This document shows, in pieces, positions 2,916 to 17,516 of a stretch of 46,861 nucleotides of DNA. Origin of the DNA: Vulcanimicrobiales bacterium (GTDB lineage Bacteria; Vulcanimicrobiota; Vulcanimicrobiia; Vulcanimicrobiales; Vulcanimicrobiaceae); contig JBBRLI010000023.1 in NCBI GenBank assembly GCA_038231455.1, positions 1 to 46,861 of the forward strand. Direction: 5' to 3'. The first letter of the stretch is position 1, and every line of letters starts with the position of its first letter. The translations under genes were made by a program, and so were the position numbers. Below the pieces are notes generated by a model, which made no database searches, was not told the DNA's origin, and saw only the letters and a list, made by a program, of their open reading frames with translations.

Positions 2916-3188
2916 GTGCATCAGCTCAGCGTGGGCGGCATTTGGCGGATCTGGGATTTTGCGGATCTGCACGCGGAGCTCGGCGAGCCGATGTTTCGCG
3001 GTCCGATGAACGAAGGGCAGACCGCACCTACGAGCGTGACGGTCGTGCGCTGGAATTGCAGCACGCCCGATGGCGTGAAGCTCTGCAACGCTTTTACCGC
3101 AAACGTCATCGGTGGCGAAGCCGATCGTTGGGTGCTCATGATGCCGTGCGATCGTCATTCGCACTTCGCGCAGGCCGACCCGACCTAA
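2916..3188 (+). CDS. Small hypothetical protein with His/Cys residues
   Basis: Fills gap between metF and cupredoxin; AGGGAG before GTG start; LHAELGEP..WNC..C..CDRH. Confidence 0.6.
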   Translation: MHQLSVGGIWRIWDFADLHAELGEPMFRGPMNEGQTAPTSVTVVRWNCSTPDGVKLCNAFTANVIGGEADRWVLMMPCDRHSHFAQADPT

Positions 3189-6662: not shown

Positions 6663-7685
6663 TTGGCAAGCGATGGCGGGCACAAGCAGTACGATGCGAC
6701 GCAAACCAAGCGCGATCGGGCGAAACGCGAGGGCAATAGCGCGCGTTCTCAAGAGCTCGCGGGCGTTGCTGCGTTTGCCGCTGCCGCGCTAGCGCTTTTT
6801 GCGATGCTGGCCAGTATCGGGCCGGCGATTGCGAGCGGATTTGCTTTGCAACTCCACGCGCCGACCCGGACGTTACCGATCGCGTGGCTGGCGGCCGTTC
6901 TCGCGCTCGCTCTTGCGCCGCCGCTTGCGGCTGCCGGCGCGGCAACGATCGCAACGTTCGCGCAGGTCGGCGGGATGCAGCTGAGGCCGCTAAAAATCGC
7001 GGCCGACAAAATGAACCCCGTTGCCGGGTTACAACGCATGGTTGGCCCGCAAGCTGCGGTCACGGCGCTGCGGGCCATCGTTGCATTCGGCGTTGCGGTC
7101 CTTGCAGTTGCCCCGATCGTACGCGAGACGTTCACGCGCGCCGGTTCGCTTGTTTCGGTTCCGGCATTCGCCGTGCTCGCCCGGGCGAGTGCCGAATGGG
7201 CGCTTGCGGCGGTGGTCCTCGTCGGGCTGGTCTTCGCGGGCGTCGACTACGCGCTCGTGCGCAAGAAGTGGCTCAAGGATTTGAAGATGACCCATGACGA
7301 GCTCAAACGCGATACCAAAGAGAACGATGGCGATCCGCATACGCGCGCGCGGCGCAAAACGCTTCATCGCCAATTCGTCCGCGGTTCCGTCTCCCGCGTG
7401 CGCGAGGCGGCCTTTGTCATCACCAATCCGACCCATCTCGCGATCGCTCTCAAGTACGACCCGCCGCGCGTGAGCGTTCCGGAGATCGTCGTACGCGCCG
7501 CCGACGACGCAGCGGCCCACGTCCGCGCGATTGCGCGCGAGCGTGGCATCCCGATCGTCGAGAACGTTCCGCTCGCCCGCGCGCTGTATGCAACCGGCGA
7601 AGCCGGACGACCGATTGCAAACGAACATTTTGTCGCCGTCGCACAGATCATCGCCGAGCTCGCGCGTGCGGGTGTCCTCTCGTGA
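6663..7685 (+). CDS. flhB: Type III export switch protein FlhB/SctU
   Basis: KMNPVAG, LKMTHDELKRD..ENDGDP, NPTH autocleavage motif, IPIVENVPLARALY. Confidence 0.92.
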   Translation: MASDGGHKQYDATQTKRDRAKREGNSARSQELAGVAAFAAAALALFAMLASIGPAIASGFALQLHAPTRTLPIAWLAAVLALALAPPLAAAGAATIATFAQVGGMQLRPLKIAADKMNPVAGLQRMVGPQAAVTALRAIVAFGVAVLAVAPIVRETFTRAGSLVSVPAFAVLARASAEWALAAVVLVGLVFAGVDYALVRKKWLKDLKMTHDELKRDTKENDGDPHTRARRKTLHRQFVRGSVSRVREAAFVITNPTHLAIALKYDPPRVSVPEIVVRAADDAAAHVRAIARERGIPIVENVPLARALYATGEAGRPIANEHFVAVAQIIAELARAGVLS

Positions 7686-9778
7686 AGAAGAGCGCGCTCA
7701 ACTCTCGACTGACCTACGCGTTCTCCGCAATCGTCCTTGCCATCGTCGCCATCCTTGTCGTGCCGCTGCCGCCGGTTCTTCTGGACCTCTTACTCGGCAT
7801 CAACATCTTGGGCTCGTCGCTCGTGCTGTTGATCAGCTTACGCGTGGAAGAGCCGCTCGAATTTTCCGCCTTTGCGCCTTCGCTCTTGCTCGCAACGCTC
7901 TTCCGACTCTCGCTCGATGTCAGCGCCACACGTTTGATCTTGACCGAGGGTCATGTCGTCGGCGGGGTCGGAAGCGTCATTCCAGCGTTTGGCGCGTTCG
8001 TCGTTCGCGGCAATATCGTCGTTGGCTTGATCGTCTTTGCAATTCTTATCACGATTCAGTTTGTCGTGATCGCGACGGGTGCCCAGCGCGTAGCCGAAGT
8101 GTGCGCCCGCTTCACGCTCGATGCGATGCCGGGTAAGCAAATGGCTATCGACGCGGACGTTCACGCGGGTCTCCTCGATGCCGAAGGCGCGCGGGCAAAG
8201 CGTGCGCGCGTGCAGCGTGAGGCGGATTTTTACGCGGCGATGGACGGCGCGGGCAAGTTCGTCAAAGGCGATGCCATCGCAGCGCTCGTGATTGTCGTAC
8301 TCAACCTCATTGGCGGTATCGTCGTCGGCATGGCGTACCATGGGCTTTCGCCGGTGGATGCGATCGAAACGTTTGCACTGCTCTCGATCGGCAACGCGCT
8401 GGTCACGACGCTTCCGGCATTCCTGATTTCGACAGCAATGGGGATGATGGTTACGCGTGTCGCGGGCGAAGGCGCGCTCGGCGTCGATCTTGCCATGCAA
8501 CTCATCGGCCGGCCCGACGTCCTGCGTTCCGCAGCGGTGCTGATGTTGCTCTTGGGCTTCGTGCCCGCATTACCCGGCCCGGTCTTCTTCGGTTTAGGTG
8601 CGGCCGCTCTTGGCGCAGCGCAACTCGCGCACAAGCGCAACTCCGCCATGACCGCGCAACTCCTTGCCGATCGCGAACGGTCGCGGAAAAATAGCGTGCG
8701 ACGGCCGGAGATGGCGCTCGCGCTCGTCGGTGTCGATGCGATCTCCATCGATTTTGGGGTCGAACTCTATCCGCTGCTGAACGCACCGAGTGCCGATGCG
8801 CTGCTCGATCGCATCGGCGATGTCCGTCGGGCGCTTGCGGCGGAGATCGGCCTGGTTATCCCCGGCGTGCGACTGCGCGACGACGGGATGCGCGATCCGC
8901 ACACCTATGCGATCCGCGTGCGTGATGAGATCGTAGCCGAAGGAACGCTTCGCCTCGACGCGTTGCTCGCCGTCGCGGACCCGGCGGCACTTGATGCCCT
9001 TGTCGGAACCTCGACGCACGAACCCGTCTACGGGCTTCCGGCAAAGTGGATTGCCGTTGGTGCGCGCGATGAAGCGATGCGCGCTGGTGCGCTCACCTTC
9101 GATGCGATTTCAATCGTTGGTTCGCATCTTTCCGATGTCGTTCGCCGTCACGCCGCATCGCTGCTCGGGCGCCAGGAGTTCCACACGCTCGTCGAACATC
9201 TGCGCGCGACGGTCCCCTCGCTTGTAAAAGATCTCGGATCGGATTTGCTCCCGATCGCAACGGCGCATCGTGCGTTCGTGTATCTGCTACGAGAAGGGGC
9301 GTGGCCGCGCGATCCGATCGCCGTGCTCGAAGCGATGCTCGATGCCGCCGCGACGACCCGCGAACCGCGCGAACTTGCCGAGGCGGCACGCCGCGCGATC
9401 GTGCCGCAGCAATTTCGTCGCGAGGGCCTTCGCACGATCGCCCCACTCATCTTCGACCCCGTTTTTGAAGCGGAACTTGCGCGCATGTGGAGTCCATCCG
9501 GCGGACTTGCGCCCGACCCCTCAACTGCGCTGCACGTGCGCGGCTGCGTCGAGAATTACCTTGCCAAGCCGATCGACGTCGCGCATGCGATTGTTTGCAC
9601 CGCTGCGCTGCGGCCGATGCTCAGCGACTTTTTTGAAAAAACCGGACTAACGATTGCCGTGTACGCGTATAACGAACTTCCCGCGCAAATGGAGTTGCGG
9701 GCAGCCGGAGTGATCGCACAGAAAAAAGAGACCGTGGCGCTCTCCCGCCTCGCATCCGCAAGTGGCTCCTTATCCTAG
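7682..9778 (+). CDS. flhA: Type III export protein FlhA/SctV
   Basis: FRLSLDVSATRLIL, RVAEVCARFTLDAMPGKQMAIDAD, FYAAMDGAGKFVKGDA motifs. Confidence 0.95.
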   Translation: MKKSALNSRLTYAFSAIVLAIVAILVVPLPPVLLDLLLGINILGSSLVLLISLRVEEPLEFSAFAPSLLLATLFRLSLDVSATRLILTEGHVVGGVGSVIPAFGAFVVRGNIVVGLIVFAILITIQFVVIATGAQRVAEVCARFTLDAMPGKQMAIDADVHAGLLDAEGARAKRARVQREADFYAAMDGAGKFVKGDAIAALVIVVLNLIGGIVVGMAYHGLSPVDAIETFALLSIGNALVTTLPAFLISTAMGMMVTRVAGEGALGVDLAMQLIGRPDVLRSAAVLMLLLGFVPALPGPVFFGLGAAALGAAQLAHKRNSAMTAQLLADRERSRKNSVRRPEMALALVGVDAISIDFGVELYPLLNAPSADALLDRIGDVRRALAAEIGLVIPGVRLRDDGMRDPHTYAIRVRDEIVAEGTLRLDALLAVADPAALDALVGTSTHEPVYGLPAKWIAVGARDEAMRAGALTFDAISIVGSHLSDVVRRHAASLLGRQEFHTLVEHLRATVPSLVKDLGSDLLPIATAHRAFVYLLREGAWPRDPIAVLEAMLDAAATTREPRELAEAARRAIVPQQFRREGLRTIAPLIFDPVFEAELARMWSPSGGLAPDPSTALHVRGCVENYLAKPIDVAHAIVCTAALRPMLSDFFEKTGLTIAVYAYNELPAQMELRAAGVIAQKKETVALSRLASASGSLS

Positions 9779-10867
9779 AACGATCCAGTTCACAATTTTG
9801 GCGGTCGTGCCGTTGCTGTAGGTAAGCGTTCCGTTACCGGATGTGTCGAGCGTGAATGTGGCAACCGACTTGCCGGTATCTGTTTGCAAGATCGTTCCAC
9901 TGGCCGCCGAAACCGTGACGGTCGCATCTGCGGCCGCGTCGGCTAAGGTCAAGCTGTTGGCCGTAAACGCACCGTCGAAGAGACTGTCTGTAACGGTTCC
10001 GCTGAAGATAGCTCCGCCGTTCGAGGGGGCGCCTACGATCACCCAATTCTCGGTAGCCATTGCGAGGCTAAGGGTCCCAGCGGGCGCGGTATATGACGAA
10101 ACCCGCCCGACGATCGAAGAGGTGACCCATGGTGCCCCGAGCCGTGAGATGGGCGAAAGAGTAAAATTCAGCGTTGCTCCAACGTCCTGTACTAGTGCGC
10201 TCAAATGGGTTACGTCGGCGGCAGTGCACGAAATCGACGGATTGGGTGCCGTGCACGACACGCCCGCAGACGCGACGTTCGCAGACGTTGAACTCGGTGC
10301 GTCCGATGCGAGAACCATTGTACCAGCGGAACCGCCGGTCGTGGCTGCGATTGTCTGGTAGTCAACGATCGTTCCGTCGAGCGATCGATACGTCACCGTT
10401 CCGGTGATCGAAGCAGTCGTGGACGATGTTGCGAGAATGTCGGAATACGAATCTCGGGCCAGCTGGATGCAAGCGGTATCGTAGAACCATCGGATCGAGA
10501 GCTGCTTCTCGGTTGCGCTCACCGCGATGACGGCCGACTCGACTCCGCGCGAACAAGATGAGTACGTAAAGGCCGAGCGTTCTCGTATCCCTTTTGTAAT
10601 GCGGGCAGTGCCCCCGCGAGCGCCCGCCATTACGGCGCGTGCCGCAGTTTGAATCGAATTCTGATCGACAACAATGCCGCGCGACGCTTGAGCGGCATTT
10701 CCGATTACGCGGAGCGTTTCGCTTGCGATGTACCGCTGCGTTGCAATCGATTGAATCGCGGCGACCGTTGGCGTCGCGATCGGCGTGCTCACCGGTGAAC
10801 TCCCGCCGCCACCGCCACACGCAGACACGCAGAGCGTCGCGATAAAAAGAAGTCCCGTCTTCTTCAA
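9770..10867 (-). CDS. Ser/Thr-rich lipoprotein, allele A (unknown function)
   Basis: AAGGAAG RBS then TTG at 10867: MKKTGLLFIATLCVSAC-GGGGGSS lipobox; homologous end to end to 11176-12324. Confidence 0.85.
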   Translation of the reverse strand: MKKTGLLFIATLCVSACGGGGGSSPVSTPIATPTVAAIQSIATQRYIASETLRVIGNAAQASRGIVVDQNSIQTAARAVMAGARGGTARITKGIRERSAFTYSSCSRGVESAVIAVSATEKQLSIRWFYDTACIQLARDSYSDILATSSTTASITGTVTYRSLDGTIVDYQTIAATTGGSAGTMVLASDAPSSTSANVASAGVSCTAPNPSISCTAADVTHLSALVQDVGATLNFTLSPISRLGAPWVTSSIVGRVSSYTAPAGTLSLAMATENWVIVGAPSNGGAIFSGTVTDSLFDGAFTANSLTLADAAADATVTVSAASGTILQTDTGKSVATFTLDTSGNGTLTYSNGTTAKIVNWIVLG

Positions 10868-10955
10868 AATGCACTTCCTTACAACCGTAGGCTTTATCAA
10901 GAAGATCCGTATTTACCTCGGTCGTAACGAGCGGTGCCTGCTTGCGCTCCGTTGG

Positions 10956-11108
10956 TTAGATGGCAACGCAATCGGGGCAACGCCCGGTAATCGTCAGCGC
11001 GATGTCGACACCGGTATACCGGCACGCGCCCGCGATCGTCGATGCGATTGAGGCGACTTCGGGTGCCTGCACGTTGAGGATCGTGCCGCGCTTCTCACAC
11101 ACGAAGTG
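10956..11108 (-). pseudogene. Fragment of the fur-family gene 3' end (50 codons + stop)
   Basis: HFVCEKRGTILNVQAPEVASIASTIAGACRYTGVDIALTITGRCPDCVAI* aligns without gaps to 12402-12554; in-frame stop four codons upstream. Confidence 0.93.
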
Positions 11109-11160
11109 TCGGATCTGCTACCGATCGCGACGGCAATTGCGCACGGCGGGAGTAATCGGA
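11109..11160 (+). pseudogene. Two fused flhA fragments
   Basis: 11109-11134 matches flhA 9239-9264 (23/26 nt, SDLLPIAT); 11137-11160 matches 9695-9718 (18/24 nt, LRTAGVIG vs LRAAGVIA). Confidence 0.75.
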
Positions 11161-11175
11161 TCGCTCGTTTCTTCG

Positions 11176-12324
11176 CTACCCGAGAAGATTATAATGTACG
11201 ACTTGGGCTCCCGAGCCATTACCGTATGTTATCGTCCCGCTTCCGGTCGAGTAAAGGGTGAACGTTGCGACGGTTTTGCCGGTTGATGTTTGTGTGATCG
11301 TCCCGTTTATGATGCCGCCTAGGGATGTTGCGACCGTTGCCGTCGCGTCGGCCGAGGTATCGGCAAGCGAAAAGTTCGTCGAAATCAGCGTGCCATCTGC
11401 GGTGTAGACAAATGTTCCGCTGAAACTGGACCGGTCGGTAGGTGACGCGCCGACGAGGCTCCAGGCGGGCAGATTTCCCGGTAGGATGCTCAAGCTTCCA
11501 GCGGCTCCGGTGAACGCCGCCGCCGTCCCGCTGATGGGAACGGTGACCGTGGGGGCTGCAGTACGCGAACTAAGAGACGAAACCGTCACGTCGAGCGCGG
11601 CGCCGATGTCCGCAGGAAGCGCCGTCAAACGGATGACGTTCGCACCGCCGCACGAAATTGAAGTCGACGAAATAACGCACGAAACCCCAGAAGAACTCGT
11701 CTTTGGCGACGTCGAACTTGCGGCTTCGGAAGATGTCAACGTGAAGTTGCTGTTGGAACCTCCGGTGCTTGAAACGACAAACGCCAGCGTCTGATAATCG
11801 TAGACGTCTCCGCCGAGTAAGGTAGAGGTTTGTGTTTCAGTAATCGATGCGCTTAAGGCTGAAGTTGCGATGATGTCGATGACCGAATCTTGGAAGAGCT
11901 GCGTGCAGGCCGTGTCGTAAAACGTTCGCCCGTAGACTTGAACTTCCGTGCTACTCACAGTAACGGTCGCGCTTTCGGCGCGGTTCGCACATGCGGAATA
12001 CGAAACGGCTGATGCGCTCCGTGTCCCGTGAGGAATGCGCGAGGCGCCTTCGTGCCAGCCGGACATTGCGGTGCGTGCTCCGCTTTGCACCGAACGCCCG
12101 AGACTTGCGACACCAGTGTATCGAGCGCCGAATCCAAATGCTGTCTCCGACAAGCTGGCGACGGCGAGCATTTCGCTTGCAACCGAACGTTGTGTTGAGA
12201 CAGATTGAATGGGAACAGCGGTCGGCGTAGGTGATGGGACCGGCATCGTACTCGGCGAACTTCCGCCACCGCCGCCGCACGCGGTTAACAAGCAGGTAAT
12301 AAAAAGAAGTCCCGTCTTCTTCAA
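11176..12324 (-). CDS. Ser/Thr-rich lipoprotein, allele B (unknown function)
   Basis: AAGGAG RBS, TTG start, MKKTGLLFITCLLTAC-GGGGGSS lipobox; first 26 coding nt identical to allele A. Confidence 0.88.
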   Translation of the reverse strand: MKKTGLLFITCLLTACGGGGGSSPSTMPVPSPTPTAVPIQSVSTQRSVASEMLAVASLSETAFGFGARYTGVASLGRSVQSGARTAMSGWHEGASRIPHGTRSASAVSYSACANRAESATVTVSSTEVQVYGRTFYDTACTQLFQDSVIDIIATSALSASITETQTSTLLGGDVYDYQTLAFVVSSTGGSNSNFTLTSSEAASSTSPKTSSSGVSCVISSTSISCGGANVIRLTALPADIGAALDVTVSSLSSRTAAPTVTVPISGTAAAFTGAAGSLSILPGNLPAWSLVGASPTDRSSFSGTFVYTADGTLISTNFSLADTSADATATVATSLGGIINGTITQTSTGKTVATFTLYSTGSGTITYGNGSGAQVVHYNLLG

Positions 12325-12401
12325 TGTCCGCTCCTTTACAAGCCCATTACTGTTTCAGAGGGGAGAAGGCACTTCCCGCGTGTTTTCGGTTTCGAGCGGG
12401 G

Positions 12402-12818
12402 TTAAAGAGCAACGCAATCTGGGCAGCGCCCCGTGATCGTCAGCGCGGTATCGACACCGGTATACCGGTACGCACCGGCGATCGTCGATGCGATCGAGGC
12501 GACTTCGGGTGCCTGCACGTTCAGGATCGTGCCGCACTTCTCGCACACTAGGTGATGGTGTTTATCGAGCGCTGCTTCATAGCGCGCCGCGGACCCCGCG
12601 TGCGAGAACATTTGCACGAGCCCGATTCCGCGCAGAATATCGAGCGTGCGGTAGATCGTTCCCAGGCTTACGCCGGGTAAGTTCGCGCGCACGCGCTCGT
12701 GGATCGTTTCTGCCGTGAGGTGCGAGCCGTCTTCGAGGGCGCGCAAGATTGCCGCACGCTGCTTCGTGAGGCGGTAGCGTGTTTGCAGGAGTCCTGCATC
12801 AACACCCTTAGCGTCCAT
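12402..12818 (-). CDS. Fur-family transcriptional regulator (Fur/PerR/Zur)
   Basis: RLTKQRAAIL, HLTAE, SLGTIYRTL, HHHLVCEKCG, RCPDC; GGAGG RBS before ATG 12818. Confidence 0.93.
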   Translation of the reverse strand: MDAKGVDAGLLQTRYRLTKQRAAILRALEDGSHLTAETIHERVRANLPGVSLGTIYRTLDILRGIGLVQMFSHAGSAARYEAALDKHHHLVCEKCGTILNVQAPEVASIASTIAGAYRYTGVDTALTITGRCPDCVAL

Positions 12819-12858
12819 TCGCCTTCCTCCGACTCCCACTTGACCGACCGAGGATCGT

Positions 12859-12887
12859 TTGACGGGGGATAGCCAGCCTGCTACAAT
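12859..12887 (+). promoter_or_regulatory. Sigma70-type promoter for secD operon
   Basis: TTGACG-N17-TACAAT with TG extended -10. Confidence 0.75.
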
Positions 12888-12919
12888 GCGTTAGTTTCCC
12901 CCTTCCCGAAGTTGCATGC

Positions 12920-14194
12920 ATGTGGAATAGGCTCAAAACGCCCCTCAAGGCGCTACTCGTTGTCGCCATTGTGGCGCTTTGCGTCTGGTCGATCACCCCG
13001 ATCGGTCAGAAGGTAAAACTCGGACTCGACCTGCAAGGCGGTTCGCGTCTTTTACTGCAGCTCCAGACCTCGCCCGAGGTTCCGAAGATTACTGCGGACA
13101 TTCAGGGGCAAGTCGAGGACGTCGTTCAGCGACGCGTCAACGGCTTAGGTGTCTCCGAGCCGATCATCTCGCGCGTTGGCAGCGACCGGCTCCTCGTGGA
13201 ACTTGCAGGTCTCAAGAATTCCGATGAAGCCGAGCGCCTCCTTAAAGAGGCAGCGGTTCTCGAGTTCAAGATCATGCCGGAGAAAATCCAGCAAAAAGCG
13301 GCGGTCGATTTGAAATATGCCGCCGATCCGAATGGCGCGTATAAAGATTCCGGTCCGGTCGTCTATACCGGCGCCGAGTTGAAGGCCGCCCAGCCGAGCT
13401 TCGGCCCGACCGGTCAGCCGATCATCACGTTCCAAACGAAAGACCCGAAGAAATTCGGCGAGCTGACGAGCAAGAACATCGGCCACTGGCTGGCGGTGTT
13501 CCTCGATAAGAAGCTCATTAATGATGCCATCATCGAATCGACAATCACGAGCGACGGTCAAACCACCGGCAGCTTCACCGAAGAAGACGTCATTCGAATT
13601 GCGACCGAGCTGAACGCGGGCGCCCTGCCCGTCTCGCTCAAGATCATCGAGAATTCGTCCGTCGGCCCGACGCTTGGCGCAATCGACTTACAAAAGTCCA
13701 TGGTCGCATCGGCGATCGGTCTTGCCCTCGTGCTCATCTTCATGGTCGTCGTCTATCGTTTGCCGGGTTTGCTCGCCGATTTCGCGCTGATCATTTACGT
13801 GCTCATGCTCCTTGGCTTGCTTGCGATTAACCACGCCGTGCTGACGCTGCCGGGGATCGCGGGCTTTGTGCTCTCGATCGGTATGGCGGTCGATGCCAAC
13901 GTCCTGATCTTCGAACGCATGAAAGAAGAAATCTGGGCCGGCAAATCGCTGCGGACCGCGGTGAAGACGGGCTTTGCTCGCGCGTTTACGTCAGTCTTCG
14001 ACTCGCACTTCACGACGATCGTCGGTGCGGGCGTGTTGTTCTTACTCGGAACCGGCACGGTTAAAGGCTTTGCGTACACGCTCTTCTGGGGAACCGTGTT
14101 TTCGCTCGTCACCGCCGTGTTCATCACGCGCTTCTTCACGGACGTGGTCGTCGATAACGATCTGGTCACGGATACGAAAGCGTACGGAGCCTAA
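12920..14194 (+). CDS. secD: Protein translocase subunit SecD
   Basis: LGLDLQGG, RRVNGLGVSEP, GALP, VGPTLG, GMAVDANVLIFER, VKGFA. Confidence 0.96.
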   Translation: MWNRLKTPLKALLVVAIVALCVWSITPIGQKVKLGLDLQGGSRLLLQLQTSPEVPKITADIQGQVEDVVQRRVNGLGVSEPIISRVGSDRLLVELAGLKNSDEAERLLKEAAVLEFKIMPEKIQQKAAVDLKYAADPNGAYKDSGPVVYTGAELKAAQPSFGPTGQPIITFQTKDPKKFGELTSKNIGHWLAVFLDKKLINDAIIESTITSDGQTTGSFTEEDVIRIATELNAGALPVSLKIIENSSVGPTLGAIDLQKSMVASAIGLALVLIFMVVVYRLPGLLADFALIIYVLMLLGLLAINHAVLTLPGIAGFVLSIGMAVDANVLIFERMKEEIWAGKSLRTAVKTGFARAFTSVFDSHFTTIVGAGVLFLLGTGTVKGFAYTLFWGTVFSLVTAVFITRFFTDVVVDNDLVTDTKAYGA

Positions 14195-14197
14195 GCC

Positions 14198-15556
14198 ATG
14201 TTCTTTCGTCGCCTCAATTGGAACGTTGTCGGCTGGCTAAAAACCGTCTCGCTCGTCTCGACGATTCTCATCGCGCTCGGTATCGCGATGATGGTCTACA
14301 ACATGTTCACGATCCATCAACCGCTCAAGCTCGGTCTCTCCTTCACCGGCGGCACCGACGTGACGGTGAAGTTCAAGAACAGCGTTACGCCCGATCAGAT
14401 TCGCGCGGCACTCGCGCCGCTCGGCGTGAACGACGCGACCGTCACGACGATCGCCAAAACCGGCGACACCGGGACCGAGCGTTATTCGATCGGCACGCAG
14501 CACGATTTCGGCGATAGCGCTCCGCAGCTGTGGTCGGCACTCAATTCCGTTGCACCCGTCGACCGCGATCAGTCGCAAGTCGAGGCCGTCGGCCCCTCGC
14601 TCTCGCATGAGTATCTGATCAAGGCGCTCGAAGCGCTCGTGATCGCGATCGTCATCCAGTTCGTGTACATTGCCTTCCGCTTTGGGTGGAATGTTAACTT
14701 CGGCTACGTGACCGTGATCGCGCTCGTTCGCGATTCGCTGATGATGATCGGGATCTACGCGCTCGCGCAGAAGCGTGTCGACGACGCGTTCCTGGCTGCC
14801 GTGCTGACCGTCATCGGGTACTCGGTCATGGATACGATCGTCATCCTCGATCGTATTCGCGAGAATACGAAGCTGATGGCGACTGAAGCTTACGATACGA
14901 TCGTCAACACCTCGATTCTTCAAACGATGACGCGCTCGGTGAACACCCTTGCCACCGTCGTCGTGACGCTCGTTGCCTTGCTCGCGCTCGGCGGCGCGTC
15001 GCTGCAGAACTTCGCGTTTGCGCTGCTCGTGGGCATTTGCTCGGGCGGCTACCACTCGATTTTCTTCTCGGCTCCGCTCGTCGCGCAGTTCCAACGCAAC
15101 AACGCGAAAAAAGAACTCGAACGCCGCGAAGAAGCGCGCACGACCGGTGCACGCACGGTCGCCGAAGCACGACTTGCCGGCAAGACACCCGCCGAACGCG
15201 ACGCGATTGCGGCCGCCCGCCGCGAGCGTCGCGAACGCGAACGCCGCGACGTCGTTCGCTCGACGCAGGCGCCGACGCGGTATAAGAAGCGTCGTCCCGA
15301 ACGTGGCACCGGTGCGATCGGCACGGCCGAACCCGAGCTCGATCTTGACGAGCAGCACGATCACGACATCGAGCACTCGGAAATGCACGGTCAGGAAATC
15401 GATCCGCTCGACGCGCAGGCCTTGGGTCACCATGACTCTGCCTACGAAATGGGCCACGAAGAGATCGTCTTGAATCTCGAACCGCTCGACGAACACGAGC
15501 ATGCCGCGCCTCCGGCACCGGATGTCCATCCAAAAACCGAGCCGCACGACAAGTAA
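14198..15556 (+). CDS. secF: Protein translocase subunit SecF with long charged/His-rich C-terminal tail
   Basis: LGLSFTGGT, VGPS, YIAFRF, IGYSVMDTIVILDRIREN, QTMTRSVNT. Confidence 0.95.
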   Translation: MFFRRLNWNVVGWLKTVSLVSTILIALGIAMMVYNMFTIHQPLKLGLSFTGGTDVTVKFKNSVTPDQIRAALAPLGVNDATVTTIAKTGDTGTERYSIGTQHDFGDSAPQLWSALNSVAPVDRDQSQVEAVGPSLSHEYLIKALEALVIAIVIQFVYIAFRFGWNVNFGYVTVIALVRDSLMMIGIYALAQKRVDDAFLAAVLTVIGYSVMDTIVILDRIRENTKLMATEAYDTIVNTSILQTMTRSVNTLATVVVTLVALLALGGASLQNFAFALLVGICSGGYHSIFFSAPLVAQFQRNNAKKELERREEARTTGARTVAEARLAGKTPAERDAIAAARRERRERERRDVVRSTQAPTRYKKRRPERGTGAIGTAEPELDLDEQHDHDIEHSEMHGQEIDPLDAQALGHHDSAYEMGHEEIVLNLEPLDEHEHAAPPAPDVHPKTEPHDK

Positions 15557-17516
15557 GAACCTCCCGCCTCCGACTCCGTCGGAGGCGGCTTTCGATGCGC
15601 TGCTCGCATCGTTTGAGGATCCGCGCCCGCCGGTCCGGCAAAAGCCGCCGGGCGAAGATCTCGAACCGGTGAAGTCGTTTCTCGCCGAACTCTACGCGCG
15701 GCGCGATGAGTTTCTCGACGGCGATCGCTATCGGACGATCGGCGATGCGAGCGAATTTTTCACGAAGGTCGCCGGCGTCTCGTTCGAAGGCCGTCAGGAT
15801 GTGCTCGGTGGGATGCGCGCGGGCGAGCCGCTTGACCTCGTGCGCCAGCCGGAGAACCCGCACGACGTAAACGCGGTCGCTGTCTACTACGGCACGCTCC
15901 ACGTCGGTTACATCAAGAAAGAAATCGCCCGCCGCATTGCGCCGAATATCGACGGCGGTGAACGCTACCGCGCAAGCGTTACGGACGTAACGGGCGGCGG
16001 CACGCGGCACTGGGGCATCAATATTCTCGTGCACCGCGAACGCACGCGAGCCGCGTCGACGCGCGTGCGCGACGAAGGCGTTCCGGCAACACGCGATGAC
16101 ATACGTGCCGCGCTAATCGGCGAGCGTCTCCCGCGCGACGCGCAACTCGCCGTACTCGAACGAATCGATGCAGGGAGTAATACGCTGGCGATCCTCGGTA
16201 CCGGCCGCGGGAAGTCGTTTTGTTTTCAGTATCCCGCCGCAGTCCGCGCGCTCGAACGCAGCGAGAAGACGATCGTCCTCTATCCGCTGCGGGCCCTTGC
16301 AAACGACCAGTACGAAGCACTGCAGCGGCGACTTGGCCCGCTCGGACTGCGCATCTTCCGAGCGAACGGTGCGATCGATGAGAACGAACGTGCTGACCTC
16401 ATGGATGCGCTCGAAAGCGGTGCGTGGGATATCGTCTGCGCGACGCCCGAGTTCTTGCAGTATCATCTCGACCGCTTTCGTAGCGAGGAGAGCCGTCCGA
16501 GCCTCGTCGTCGTCGATGAGGCCCACCATCTCGACGATGCCAAACGCCGCCCCGCGTACGGGAAGATCGGCGATGCACTGGCCGCGCTTGGCAATCCCCA
16601 AGTTCTCGCACTCACGGCAACCGCCGACGATGAGGTCTTTGAGAAAATTCGCAGCTCGATGAACATCGATGCATGGGTGATCGATCCGACGGTTCGTGAA
16701 AATCTAAGCGTAGTTGATGCGCGCGGAGTGAAAGACAAACTTGCCTATATCGACGAGCGGTTACGCGGCGGCGGAAAGGCGATCGTGTACTGCAATTCGC
16801 GCACCGAGGCGACGAAGCTTGCGGAGAAATTGCGCGCACGCAACGGCGATACGGTGGCGTTCTATCATGCCGGTCTTGGAATTCCGGAACGGGCGCAGGT
16901 TGAAACGCTTTTTCGCGAAGGCGCGCTCTCGACCGTCGTTGCGACGTCTGCGTTTGGCGAGGGGATCGATTTGCCAGACGTGCGGCATGTTTTTCTGTAC
17001 CATCTCAATTTCAATTTTACGGAATTCAATCAGCAGGCCGGGCGTGCGGGACGCGATGGCGGCTCCTCCGAGATCCACTTGCTCTTCGGCGAAAGCGATC
17101 GCCGCATCAACGATTACATCATCGCAAAGTCCGCGCCGACCATCGCGACGCTACGTGCACTCTATCGCGCGATGAAGGGCCTGACAACGGACGATACCCT
17201 GCGCATGGCCTATACGGATATCGCGGCGACCCTCGAAATGGATATGGTTGACGGCTCGACGGTCGGGACGGCCGTACGCATCTTCGATGATGCGGATATC
17301 GTCCAGGTTGGTACCGACGATGACGGTCGCTTCGTGCGCTTTATCGAGGTGAAAGAAAAGCTCGATCTGACGCGAAACGCGCGTTATGCCGAAGGCGAAG
17401 CCGACCGCGAGAGCTTCGAGCAGTTCTGTTCGCTGGTACTCACGGCAAAACCCGAGGTGCTCGAGTCGGTGATCAATCGCCCGATTTATCCCGCACGCGT
17501 CGCGCTGATGCGCTAA
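15522..17516 (+). CDS. HIRAN-domain + RecQ-like DEAH helicase (start uncertain: 15501/15522/15669)
   Basis: FFTKVAGVSFEGRQ..LVRQPENPHDVNAVAV..VGYI (HIRAN); GTGRGKS, DEAH, LTATA, HAGL, ATSAFGEGID, QQAGRAGRDG. Confidence 0.88.
   Translation: MSIQKPSRTTSKNLPPPTPSEAAFDALLASFEDPRPPVRQKPPGEDLEPVKSFLAELYARRDEFLDGDRYRTIGDASEFFTKVAGVSFEGRQDVLGGMRAGEPLDLVRQPENPHDVNAVAVYYGTLHVGYIKKEIARRIAPNIDGGERYRASVTDVTGGGTRHWGINILVHRERTRAASTRVRDEGVPATRDDIRAALIGERLPRDAQLAVLERIDAGSNTLAILGTGRGKSFCFQYPAAVRALERSEKTIVLYPLRALANDQYEALQRRLGPLGLRIFRANGAIDENERADLMDALESGAWDIVCATPEFLQYHLDRFRSEESRPSLVVVDEAHHLDDAKRRPAYGKIGDALAALGNPQVLALTATADDEVFEKIRSSMNIDAWVIDPTVRENLSVVDARGVKDKLAYIDERLRGGGKAIVYCNSRTEATKLAEKLRARNGDTVAFYHAGLGIPERAQVETLFREGALSTVVATSAFGEGIDLPDVRHVFLYHLNFNFTEFNQQAGRAGRDGGSSEIHLLFGESDRRINDYIIAKSAPTIATLRALYRAMKGLTTDDTLRMAYTDIAATLEMDMVDGSTVGTAVRIFDDADIVQVGTDDDGRFVRFIEVKEKLDLTRNARYAEGEADRESFEQFCSLVLTAKPEVLESVINRPIYPARVALMR

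Follow-up and report, generated by a model that had tools for sequence, protein, structure and literature searches.

The gap between the convergent core genes fur and flhA in a 46,861-nt contig (JBBRLI010000023.1; this whole stretch is called the window) holds two divergent lipoprotein genes, lipoA and lipoB, separated by a copy of the 3' end of fur (fur') that directly abuts a short, probable remnant of flhA (flhA'). The contig belongs to a metagenome-assembled genome of a Vulcanimicrobiales bacterium (GCA_038231455.1; 3.71 Mb, 106 contigs, 93.7% complete) in the phylum Vulcanimicrobiota, also named Eremiobacterota or WPS-2. As a first-pass annotation of the sequence had proposed, the layout flhA-lipoA-fur'|flhA'-lipoB-fur is the footprint of a head-to-tail addition of an flhA'-lipoprotein-fur' unit. 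The explanation that we favour, with a probability of roughly 0.6, is that RecA-type and illegitimate recombination, without a site-specific recombinase, placed a second allele unit of sister-lineage origin in tandem with the first.

Core gene scars between the two lipoprotein genes

The left core flank is flhA (7682–9778, plus strand), a complete flagellar export gate gene (PF00771 FHIPEP, E 1.8e-191), and the right core flank is fur (12402–12839, minus strand), a complete Fur-family regulator that clears the gathering score of Pfam PF01475 (96.6 bits against a cut-off of 23.1; E 1.5e-27). The best NCBIfam matches of fur were PerR and Fur models, every one below cut-off, and its subfamily was left unassigned. 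Between these flanks lie lipoA (9770–10867) and lipoB (11176–12324), both on the minus strand, whose products are 46% identical over their full length (the match covers 9773–10867 of lipoA).

Self-comparison bore out the earlier claim that the end of fur is repeated between the lipoprotein genes. The copy fur' (10954–11108, minus strand) matched 12400–12554 at 88.4% identity over 155 nt without a gap (E 3e-53) and comprises the last 50 codons of fur, the stop codon and 2 nt beyond it, with the reading frame kept. The first 95 codons of fur are missing from it, and an Arg has taken the place of one Cys in the first CxxC motif. Immediately beside it, flhA' (11109–11134, plus strand) matched its parent segment in flhA, 9239–9264, at 23 of 26 positions, with E 0.003 in a 6.5-kb self-comparison and E 4.5e-4 when searched against the two flanking genes only. 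All three differences are synonymous in the flhA frame, the orientation is that predicted by head-to-tail addition, and 11109–11134 is probably a true flhA remnant. If so, roughly 500 nt of flhA 3' sequence would be gone between flhA' and the lipoB stop.

The joint at 11108/11109 links the distal flank (fur') to the proximal flank (flhA') between co-oriented lipoprotein genes and, as read from the sequence, shows no microhomology, there being no base that could equally derive from either parent. The spacer between the lipoprotein genes (10868–11175, 308 nt) is, as had been stated, largely derived from both flanks, which account for 181 nt (59%). Only the first of two flhA pieces described in the first-pass annotation stood. 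The second lies within the 41-nt spacer 11135–11175 (no strand assigned) and pairs 11137–11160 with 9695–9718 at 18 of 24 positions; the best local alignment, 11137–11158 with 9695–9716, scored 19, a value that 6.6% of 2000 shuffles attained, and the window contains a better chance match elsewhere. The deletion of about 430 nt that had been deduced between the two pieces is not established, because it depends on this second piece.

The locus was also searched for the hallmarks of a mobile element, an integron cassette or a recombinase-moved islet. No integrase or transposase Pfam family was found in 15 proteins (lipoA, lipoB, 10 neighbouring open reading frames (ORFs), flhA, fur and the fur' ORF), no tRNA was found in 1–25000 that might have served as a target, and no att or terminal repeats were found at the locus, where the flank copies are the only repeats. 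This agrees with the earlier statement that no integrase, insertion sequence or att-like repeat is adjacent.

Unequal divergence of the parts

Synonymous (dS) and nonsynonymous (dN) divergence was estimated by the Nei-Gojobori method, and the locus was compared with that of a sister species of the same genus (G001, slot locus L112) and with a genus-level contig (L032). Between this genome and G001, dS was 0.61 for fur and 0.56 for secD. Divergence was greater between lipoB and the G001 allele (dS 1.35, dN 0.34) and between lipoA and lipoB (dS 1.69, dN 0.43, 58% nucleotide identity), where the proportion of synonymous differences (pS) was 0.67 and synonymous sites are near saturation. The values for fur' against fur were dS 0.43 and dN 0.05 (ratio 0.11), reflecting 18 differences in 153 nt, with 11 synonymous and 5 nonsynonymous changes in the 16 codons that differ. 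As a side observation, flhA and flhB (window 6663–9778) differ from their L112 counterparts by dS 1.15 and 1.21, about twice the values for fur and secD.

For fur' and flhA' combined, 5 nonsynonymous stand against 16 synonymous differences. Simulated neutral decay gave a mean of about 12 nonsynonymous changes among about 21 differences, and the probability of 5 or fewer was 0–0.0023 across kappa values of 1 to 4; a count like the one observed was typical when the fragment lineage evolved at omega 0.1 (P 0.72–0.83). Such an excess of synonymous changes (dN/dS 0.11 for fur'; P <= 0.002 under neutral decay) suggests that the incoming unit was foreign. When the changes were polarised with G001 and L032 as outgroups, the fur' branch received all 5 nonsynonymous ones, and 5 synonymous ones could be placed without ambiguity on the branch of the resident gene, a pattern that fits a long selected phase of fur' followed by a short dead phase. 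The fragments are nearest to the genome's own genes, with 18 differences between fur' and fur (24 to G001, 31 to L032) and 3 between flhA' and flhA (7 and 5, respectively). That both are about 88% identical to these genes fits one donor and one event.

On the simplest reading, the scars evolved for the most part as sections of functional fur and flhA genes in a sister lineage that is somewhat nearer than G001, and the synonymous divergence of fur to that donor lineage would be about 0.6–0.7 of that to the known sister species. Judged by a surplus of about 4 nonsynonymous changes, the scars may have been dead for roughly a tenth of the lineage time between this genome and G001.

Sequence directly beside fur' behaves differently. 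The alignable sequence ends abruptly at the fur' stop codon in a global alignment, and 10885–10953 (69 nt) has no detectable homology to its counterpart 12342–12399 (58 nt), the alignment score being met by 87% of 2000 shuffles. From the fur' stop to the lipoA start (spacer 10868–10953, minus strand), only the block of ribosome-binding site and start resembles the region upstream of lipoB. The parts of the locus do not have the single age expected of a tandem duplication, the scars being 88% identical, the adjacent spacer being without detectable homology and the lipoprotein genes differing by dS 1.69. Neutral scars cannot be ten times better kept than the DNA that adjoins them if all share the same age.

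A phylogenetic analysis placed lipoA, lipoB, the G001 allele and P0012 (a 383-aa protein on a 3.4-kb contig of another sample, 63% identical to lipoB and 52–57% to lipoA) in a fully supported clade whose interior is unresolved. The lipoA/lipoB split appears about as deep as the species splits, and the tree would allow either an old duplication or two imported alleles. The former could have taken place in situ at about the age of the species splits in the genus, with fur' kept fur-like afterwards by repeated gene conversion or because a short Fur C-terminal peptide is made and selected. In favour of this, besides the depth of the split, fur' keeps an open frame of 48 codons with a GTG start and a stop, and the genes are co-oriented with no terminator-like site found between them on that strand. 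Gene conversion, however, cannot yield the synonymous bias, because a dead copy gains mostly nonsynonymous changes after each conversion, and the 18 differences are evenly spread with no identical tract longer than 26 nt. A selected peptide is at odds with the missing ribosome-binding site before the fur' GTG (read from the sequence), with the loss of one CxxC cysteine and with the same synonymous-only pattern in the non-coding flhA'. Clean loss would also be needed in both G001 and L032, neither of which has scars, and an old duplication is thus judged improbable.

A plain tandem duplication of flhA'-lipoprotein-fur' within this lineage, with quick divergence of the lipoproteins and neutral decay of the scars, is more improbable still. 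The layout is the textbook footprint of such an event, fur' and flhA' are closest to the genome's own genes, a sister relationship of lipoA and lipoB is compatible with the tree, and all nonsynonymous changes lie on the fur' branch. Neutral decay of this kind is nevertheless rejected because of the synonymous bias of the scars (5 nonsynonymous changes seen where about 12 of about 21 were expected, P <= 0.002), the loss of homology in the non-coding spacer next to an indel-free fur', and lipoprotein genes near synonymous saturation, as the parts of one duplication cannot differ so widely in neutral divergence.

Support for the assembly

In a public run from a sediment metagenome (X1), which may be the source sample, 96% of the sampled words were present. 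A 14,019-nt Logan contig of this run (k=31) carries 9100–12700 without interruption; it differs by 4 substitutions, contains no gap and shows no alternative joint, at a single depth figure of 12.4. Contigs of two other runs, X2 and X3, did not match the stretch, which speaks neither for nor against the assembly. Among the run's contigs, no second flank haplotype was found at >= 85% identity beyond scraps of 18–35 nt. A mis-join in the graph is unlikely because the longest exact run shared by fur' and fur, as read from the alignment, is 26 nt and thus shorter than k=31. In addition, fur and flhA have no common sequence at the joint, and 31-mers across 11108/11109 must therefore exist in the reads. 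An artefact in which two co-occurring strains with one allele each were stitched into a false tandem is very improbable: the window comes from a metagenome-assembled genome of 106 contigs and the check used contig-level data possibly from the same sample, but the stretch, the junction words and the single flank haplotype all speak against it, and a false join would need a second jump as well, since flhA' is cut short.

The first-pass annotation had named two outcomes that would overturn its proposal, a chimera of two strains and a two-gene arrangement fixed in all relatives. Neither was found, because the independent contig spans the junction and the copy number within the genus varies from 0 (L032) through 1 (G001/L112) to 2 in this genome.

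Proposed course of the addition

Under tandem addition of a sister-lineage unit, the gap in which fur and flhA converge would have contained, in the ancestor of the genus, a single lipoprotein gene immediately after fur. A segment with the 3' part of flhA, a diverged lipoprotein allele and the 3' part of fur from a sister lineage of the same genus would then have joined the resident unit head-to-tail, by homologous pairing in one conserved flank and one blunt illegitimate joint, fur'|flhA' at 11108/11109. Several routes would give this product. A linear fragment may have circularised and entered through one crossover with homologous flhA or fur sequence; homology may have anchored only one side, with the other side joined illegitimately (homology-facilitated illegitimate recombination); or a duplication may have been followed by allele replacement of one copy. 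Unequal exchange is a further candidate. The integration of a donor unit envisaged in the first-pass annotation was thus strengthened as to origin, since the synonymous scars and the loss of homology beside fur' favour a foreign sister lineage over simple duplication, and was left broader as to route.

Following the event, the truncated fur' and flhA' would have been dead DNA, in which fur' gained a few damaging changes including the Cys to Arg change in CxxC and most of flhA' was deleted, with both lipoprotein genes remaining intact behind their own ribosome-binding sites. Because lipoB is marginally closer to the G001 gene (57% identity, compared with 45% for lipoA), it is weakly suggested that lipoA belongs to the newcomer unit. 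The genome encodes ComEC (1 match), DprA (3 domain matches) and Ku (1 match), which would make DNA uptake and end-joining possible.

A number of observations weigh against this explanation. No donor was found, the nearest relative of lipoA outside this genome being 52–57% identical, and a genome-wide search for a donor-like fur copy matched fur' to the resident fur only. A constraint that makes lipoA and lipoB sisters was not rejected (approximately unbiased test, p-AU 0.117 with 12 rows and 0.231 with 19 rows). The statistics are based on 21 differences in 58 codons and a simple mutation model, and the fur' branch alone, with 5 nonsynonymous to 3–8 synonymous changes, is by itself not different from neutrality. 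Sliding identity of FlhA against G001 and L032 showed no breakpoint, and none was visible in the short fur gene. The remnant flhA' is small, and its significance is confined to the local search space, because a genome-wide search with 10940–11180 returned no flhA match at E <= 0.01; the same search gave two unrelated matches of 28–30 nt and similar quality. ComEC and DprA also occur in most control genomes (10 and 11 of 14), and their presence does not indicate competence. Finally, the assembly support is at the level of contigs rather than raw reads, and the run may be the window's own source sample.

The fur/flhA slot in relatives

The arrangement in which flhA and flhB converge on fur, with secD on its other side, is kept throughout the phylum, where flhA is the conserved partner of fur. 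The slot was surveyed in 153 fur-centred loci (L032–L184), 80 from metagenome contigs and 73 from species-representative genomes. Both fur and flhA were seen in 51 of the metagenome loci, 33 with a gap below 300 nt and 18 with inserted DNA of 0.59–5.7 kb. The corresponding figures for the genomes were 44 loci, of which 27 had a gap below about 350 nt and 17 had inserts of 1.1–5.7 kb. The cargo varies by lineage, and a profile of the lipoprotein family, run on stop-to-stop frames of at least 120 aa from all loci, gave one match beside fur, in L112 of G001. The notion of recombinase-free stacking at a fixed slot is supported as regards the missing recombinase. Recurrent stacking at a slot specific to lipoproteins is not supported: the family stands in this gap in 1 of 153 loci and in this genus only, and the cargo of other genera is unrelated.

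Within the genus, the slot of L032 (Fur 94% and FlhA 88% identical) is empty with a gap of 18 nt, and that of G001 has a single lipoprotein gene between fur and flhA, 57% identical to lipoB, without scars. At L112:6436–6450 the lipoprotein ATG lies 9 nt past the fur stop and its ribosome-binding site overlaps that stop, so that fur and the lipoprotein gene look like one operon.

Elsewhere in the phylum, the fur/flhA convergence point is an insertion hot spot with cargo of 0.6–5.7 kb, and a cassette of 3–4 genes recurs in the slots of L033, L039, L060, L067 and L071. Searches for fur'/flhA' scars in other occupied slots yielded short noise-level matches, both in 16 metagenome loci and L006 (E <= 0.05) and in 18 genome loci (E <= 0.001), with L090 as the sole exception among all slots searched. 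In L065, several segments of 36–48 nt at 2264–2450, in both orientations, match the contig end at 3023–3068 with up to 96% identity and are probably an assembly fold-back rather than biology.

L090 is a metagenome locus with a Fur 71% identical to that of the window. In its relatives L076, L147 and L153, fur, a gene that we take by eye, without a family search, to be carboxymuconolactone-decarboxylase/cupin-like, and flhA are in direct contact. L090 has about 1.4 kb in addition, inserted between the decarboxylase/cupin-like gene and flhA and carrying a different lipoprotein gene of 429 aa (7557–8846). The insert is bracketed by a 36-nt direct repeat (7462–7497 and 8847–8881; 86% identity, E 1.3e-5) that includes the last 12 codons of flhA. 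Judged from this sequence arrangement, L090 is an independent insertion at the same junction that likewise duplicated core-gene sequence.

A bolder proposal is that the fur/flhA convergence is a recurrent landing pad of Vulcanimicrobiota, at which envelope-lipoprotein cassettes of related lineages are added by recombinase-free, homology-anchored recombination. We consider this unlikely and keep it open mainly because of the L090 insertion. Each addition would, on the same doubtful footing, leave a core-gene fragment behind, alleles would stack and later sort, and L090 would be a second footprint.

The lipoproteins and their gene neighbourhood

lipoA encodes a 365-aa lipoprotein; translation would start with the TTG at 10867, which follows an AGGA-type ribosome-binding site, and the open frame extends past this start to 10900. 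lipoB encodes one of 382 aa from a TTG start behind an AGGAG site. Both genes are complete, each with its own start codon and ribosome-binding site. In each product the lipobox (V-S-A-C in lipoA, L-T-A-C in lipoB) ends in a Cys after a hydrophobic stretch and is followed by a Gly run. An alignment of 12 sequences showed Cys16 to be nearly invariant (>= 90%), as well as four further conserved Cys (C112, C140, C216 and C225 of lipoB, three of them invariant and the fourth nearly so) and a conserved C-terminal block rich in Gly and Thr. The genome holds exactly 2 copies of the gene, 3 further matches in the genome search being to the signal peptide only.

No Pfam or NCBIfam model covers lipoA or lipoB, whose family is undescribed. 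It is not a rare one: a profile search retrieved 526 clusters at 50% identity with E <= 0.001, 91 of them at E <= 1e-30. An AlphaFold2 model of lipoB from the same alignment had a low mean predicted local distance difference test score (pLDDT) of 56.8 and was all-beta after about residue 110. Foldseek comparison of this model with PDB gave no match at E <= 0.001; its top rows were OspA variants with template modelling (TM) scores of at most 0.25, which were not accepted as a fold assignment. The best clusters in the ESM Atlas were unnamed 'lipoprotein' entries at 0.85–0.89, below the level at which matches were counted. The lipoprotein dN/dS of 0.25–0.28, compared with 0.04–0.11 for neighbouring genes, fits a putative exposed, fast-evolving envelope protein under continued selection.

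The spacers behind the fur stop and the fur' stop are 77 and 88 nt long, the former (12325–12401, minus strand) having a counterpart of 9 nt in G001. A promoter and terminator scan of 9500–13000 gave counts no higher than those in shuffles, and on the minus strand between the genes it gave none except one weak terminator-like site inside lipoA. Both lipoprotein genes are probably read through from the fur promoter, which we infer because the lipoprotein gene stands directly behind fur (9 nt in G001).

On the left, the stop of lipoA overlaps the stop of the convergent flhA by 9 nt (9770–9778). FlhA here has about 9 more C-terminal residues than in G001 and L032, and its end may have been remodelled by the rearrangement. 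Further out, flhB (6663–7685, plus strand) lies left of flhA, and secD (12920–14194, plus strand) is divergent from fur and part of the conserved secD-fur/flhA-flhB frame by which the slot was located in relatives. An ORF directly downstream of secF (15501–17516) encodes a helicase with a HIRAN domain and DEAD/Helicase_C domains.

Comparison with known systems

The type of event is already known from laboratory genetics, and this locus is a natural instance of it. On the favoured reading, general recombination alone was enough to bring a second old allele of a fast-evolving envelope lipoprotein next to the first. The present scope is one locus in one metagenome-assembled genome, which provides a natural and datable case in a phylum known here almost solely from such genomes. 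It also provides a usable test, as the ratio of synonymous to nonsynonymous changes in dead flank fragments distinguishes a unit that was imported from one duplicated in place. Should further cases come to light, this would be a route by which bacteria gain surface-protein paralogues without mobile elements.

Circularisation of incoming linear DNA followed by a recA-dependent single crossover (Campbell-type additive integration) is described for E. coli in PMC3240628, which documents this and homology-facilitated illegitimate recombination as fates of linear DNA. Campbell-type integration resembles the present case in its tandem unit, in partial flank copies around one novel joint and in requiring no site-specific recombinase. 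It differs in that it concerns laboratory constructs, whereas here the genome is natural, the joint lacks microhomology, and circle and crossover are both inferred. A literature search on Campbell-type integration returned nothing relevant among the matches listed.

In homology-facilitated illegitimate recombination of naturally transformable bacteria, homology anchors just one end of the incoming DNA, and the opposite end is attached by an illegitimate joint (PMC3240628). Foreign DNA is thereby added beside a conserved gene, as would be the case here. The joints of this process usually lie at short microhomologies, often with deletion of recipient DNA, whereas the joint reported here is blunt and the net effect was a duplication of flank sequence.

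In the transformation-triggered merodiploids of Streptococcus pneumoniae, recombination with DNA that has been taken up creates tandem duplications bordered by repeats (PMC3784515). The result resembles the one proposed here in its tandem copies, which are free to differ. The pneumococcal duplications span 100–900 kb, have IS861-remnant borders and arise by unequal crossing-over between sister chromatids. The unit described here measures 1.4–1.9 kb, has no insertion sequence (IS) and consists of old alleles instead of fresh duplicates.

Two further comparisons concern the cargo. In silent-cassette antigenic variation, promoterless or partial cassettes feed one expression site, in contrast to this locus, where both genes are complete and the genome has only the two copies. 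Variable surface-antigen loci between conserved flanking genes exchange alleles by homologous recombination in the flanks, and share with this locus a fast-evolving envelope-protein gene between core genes and allele lineages as old as the species. There, a new allele normally takes the place of the old one, whereas here the incoming allele would have been added beside the resident one.

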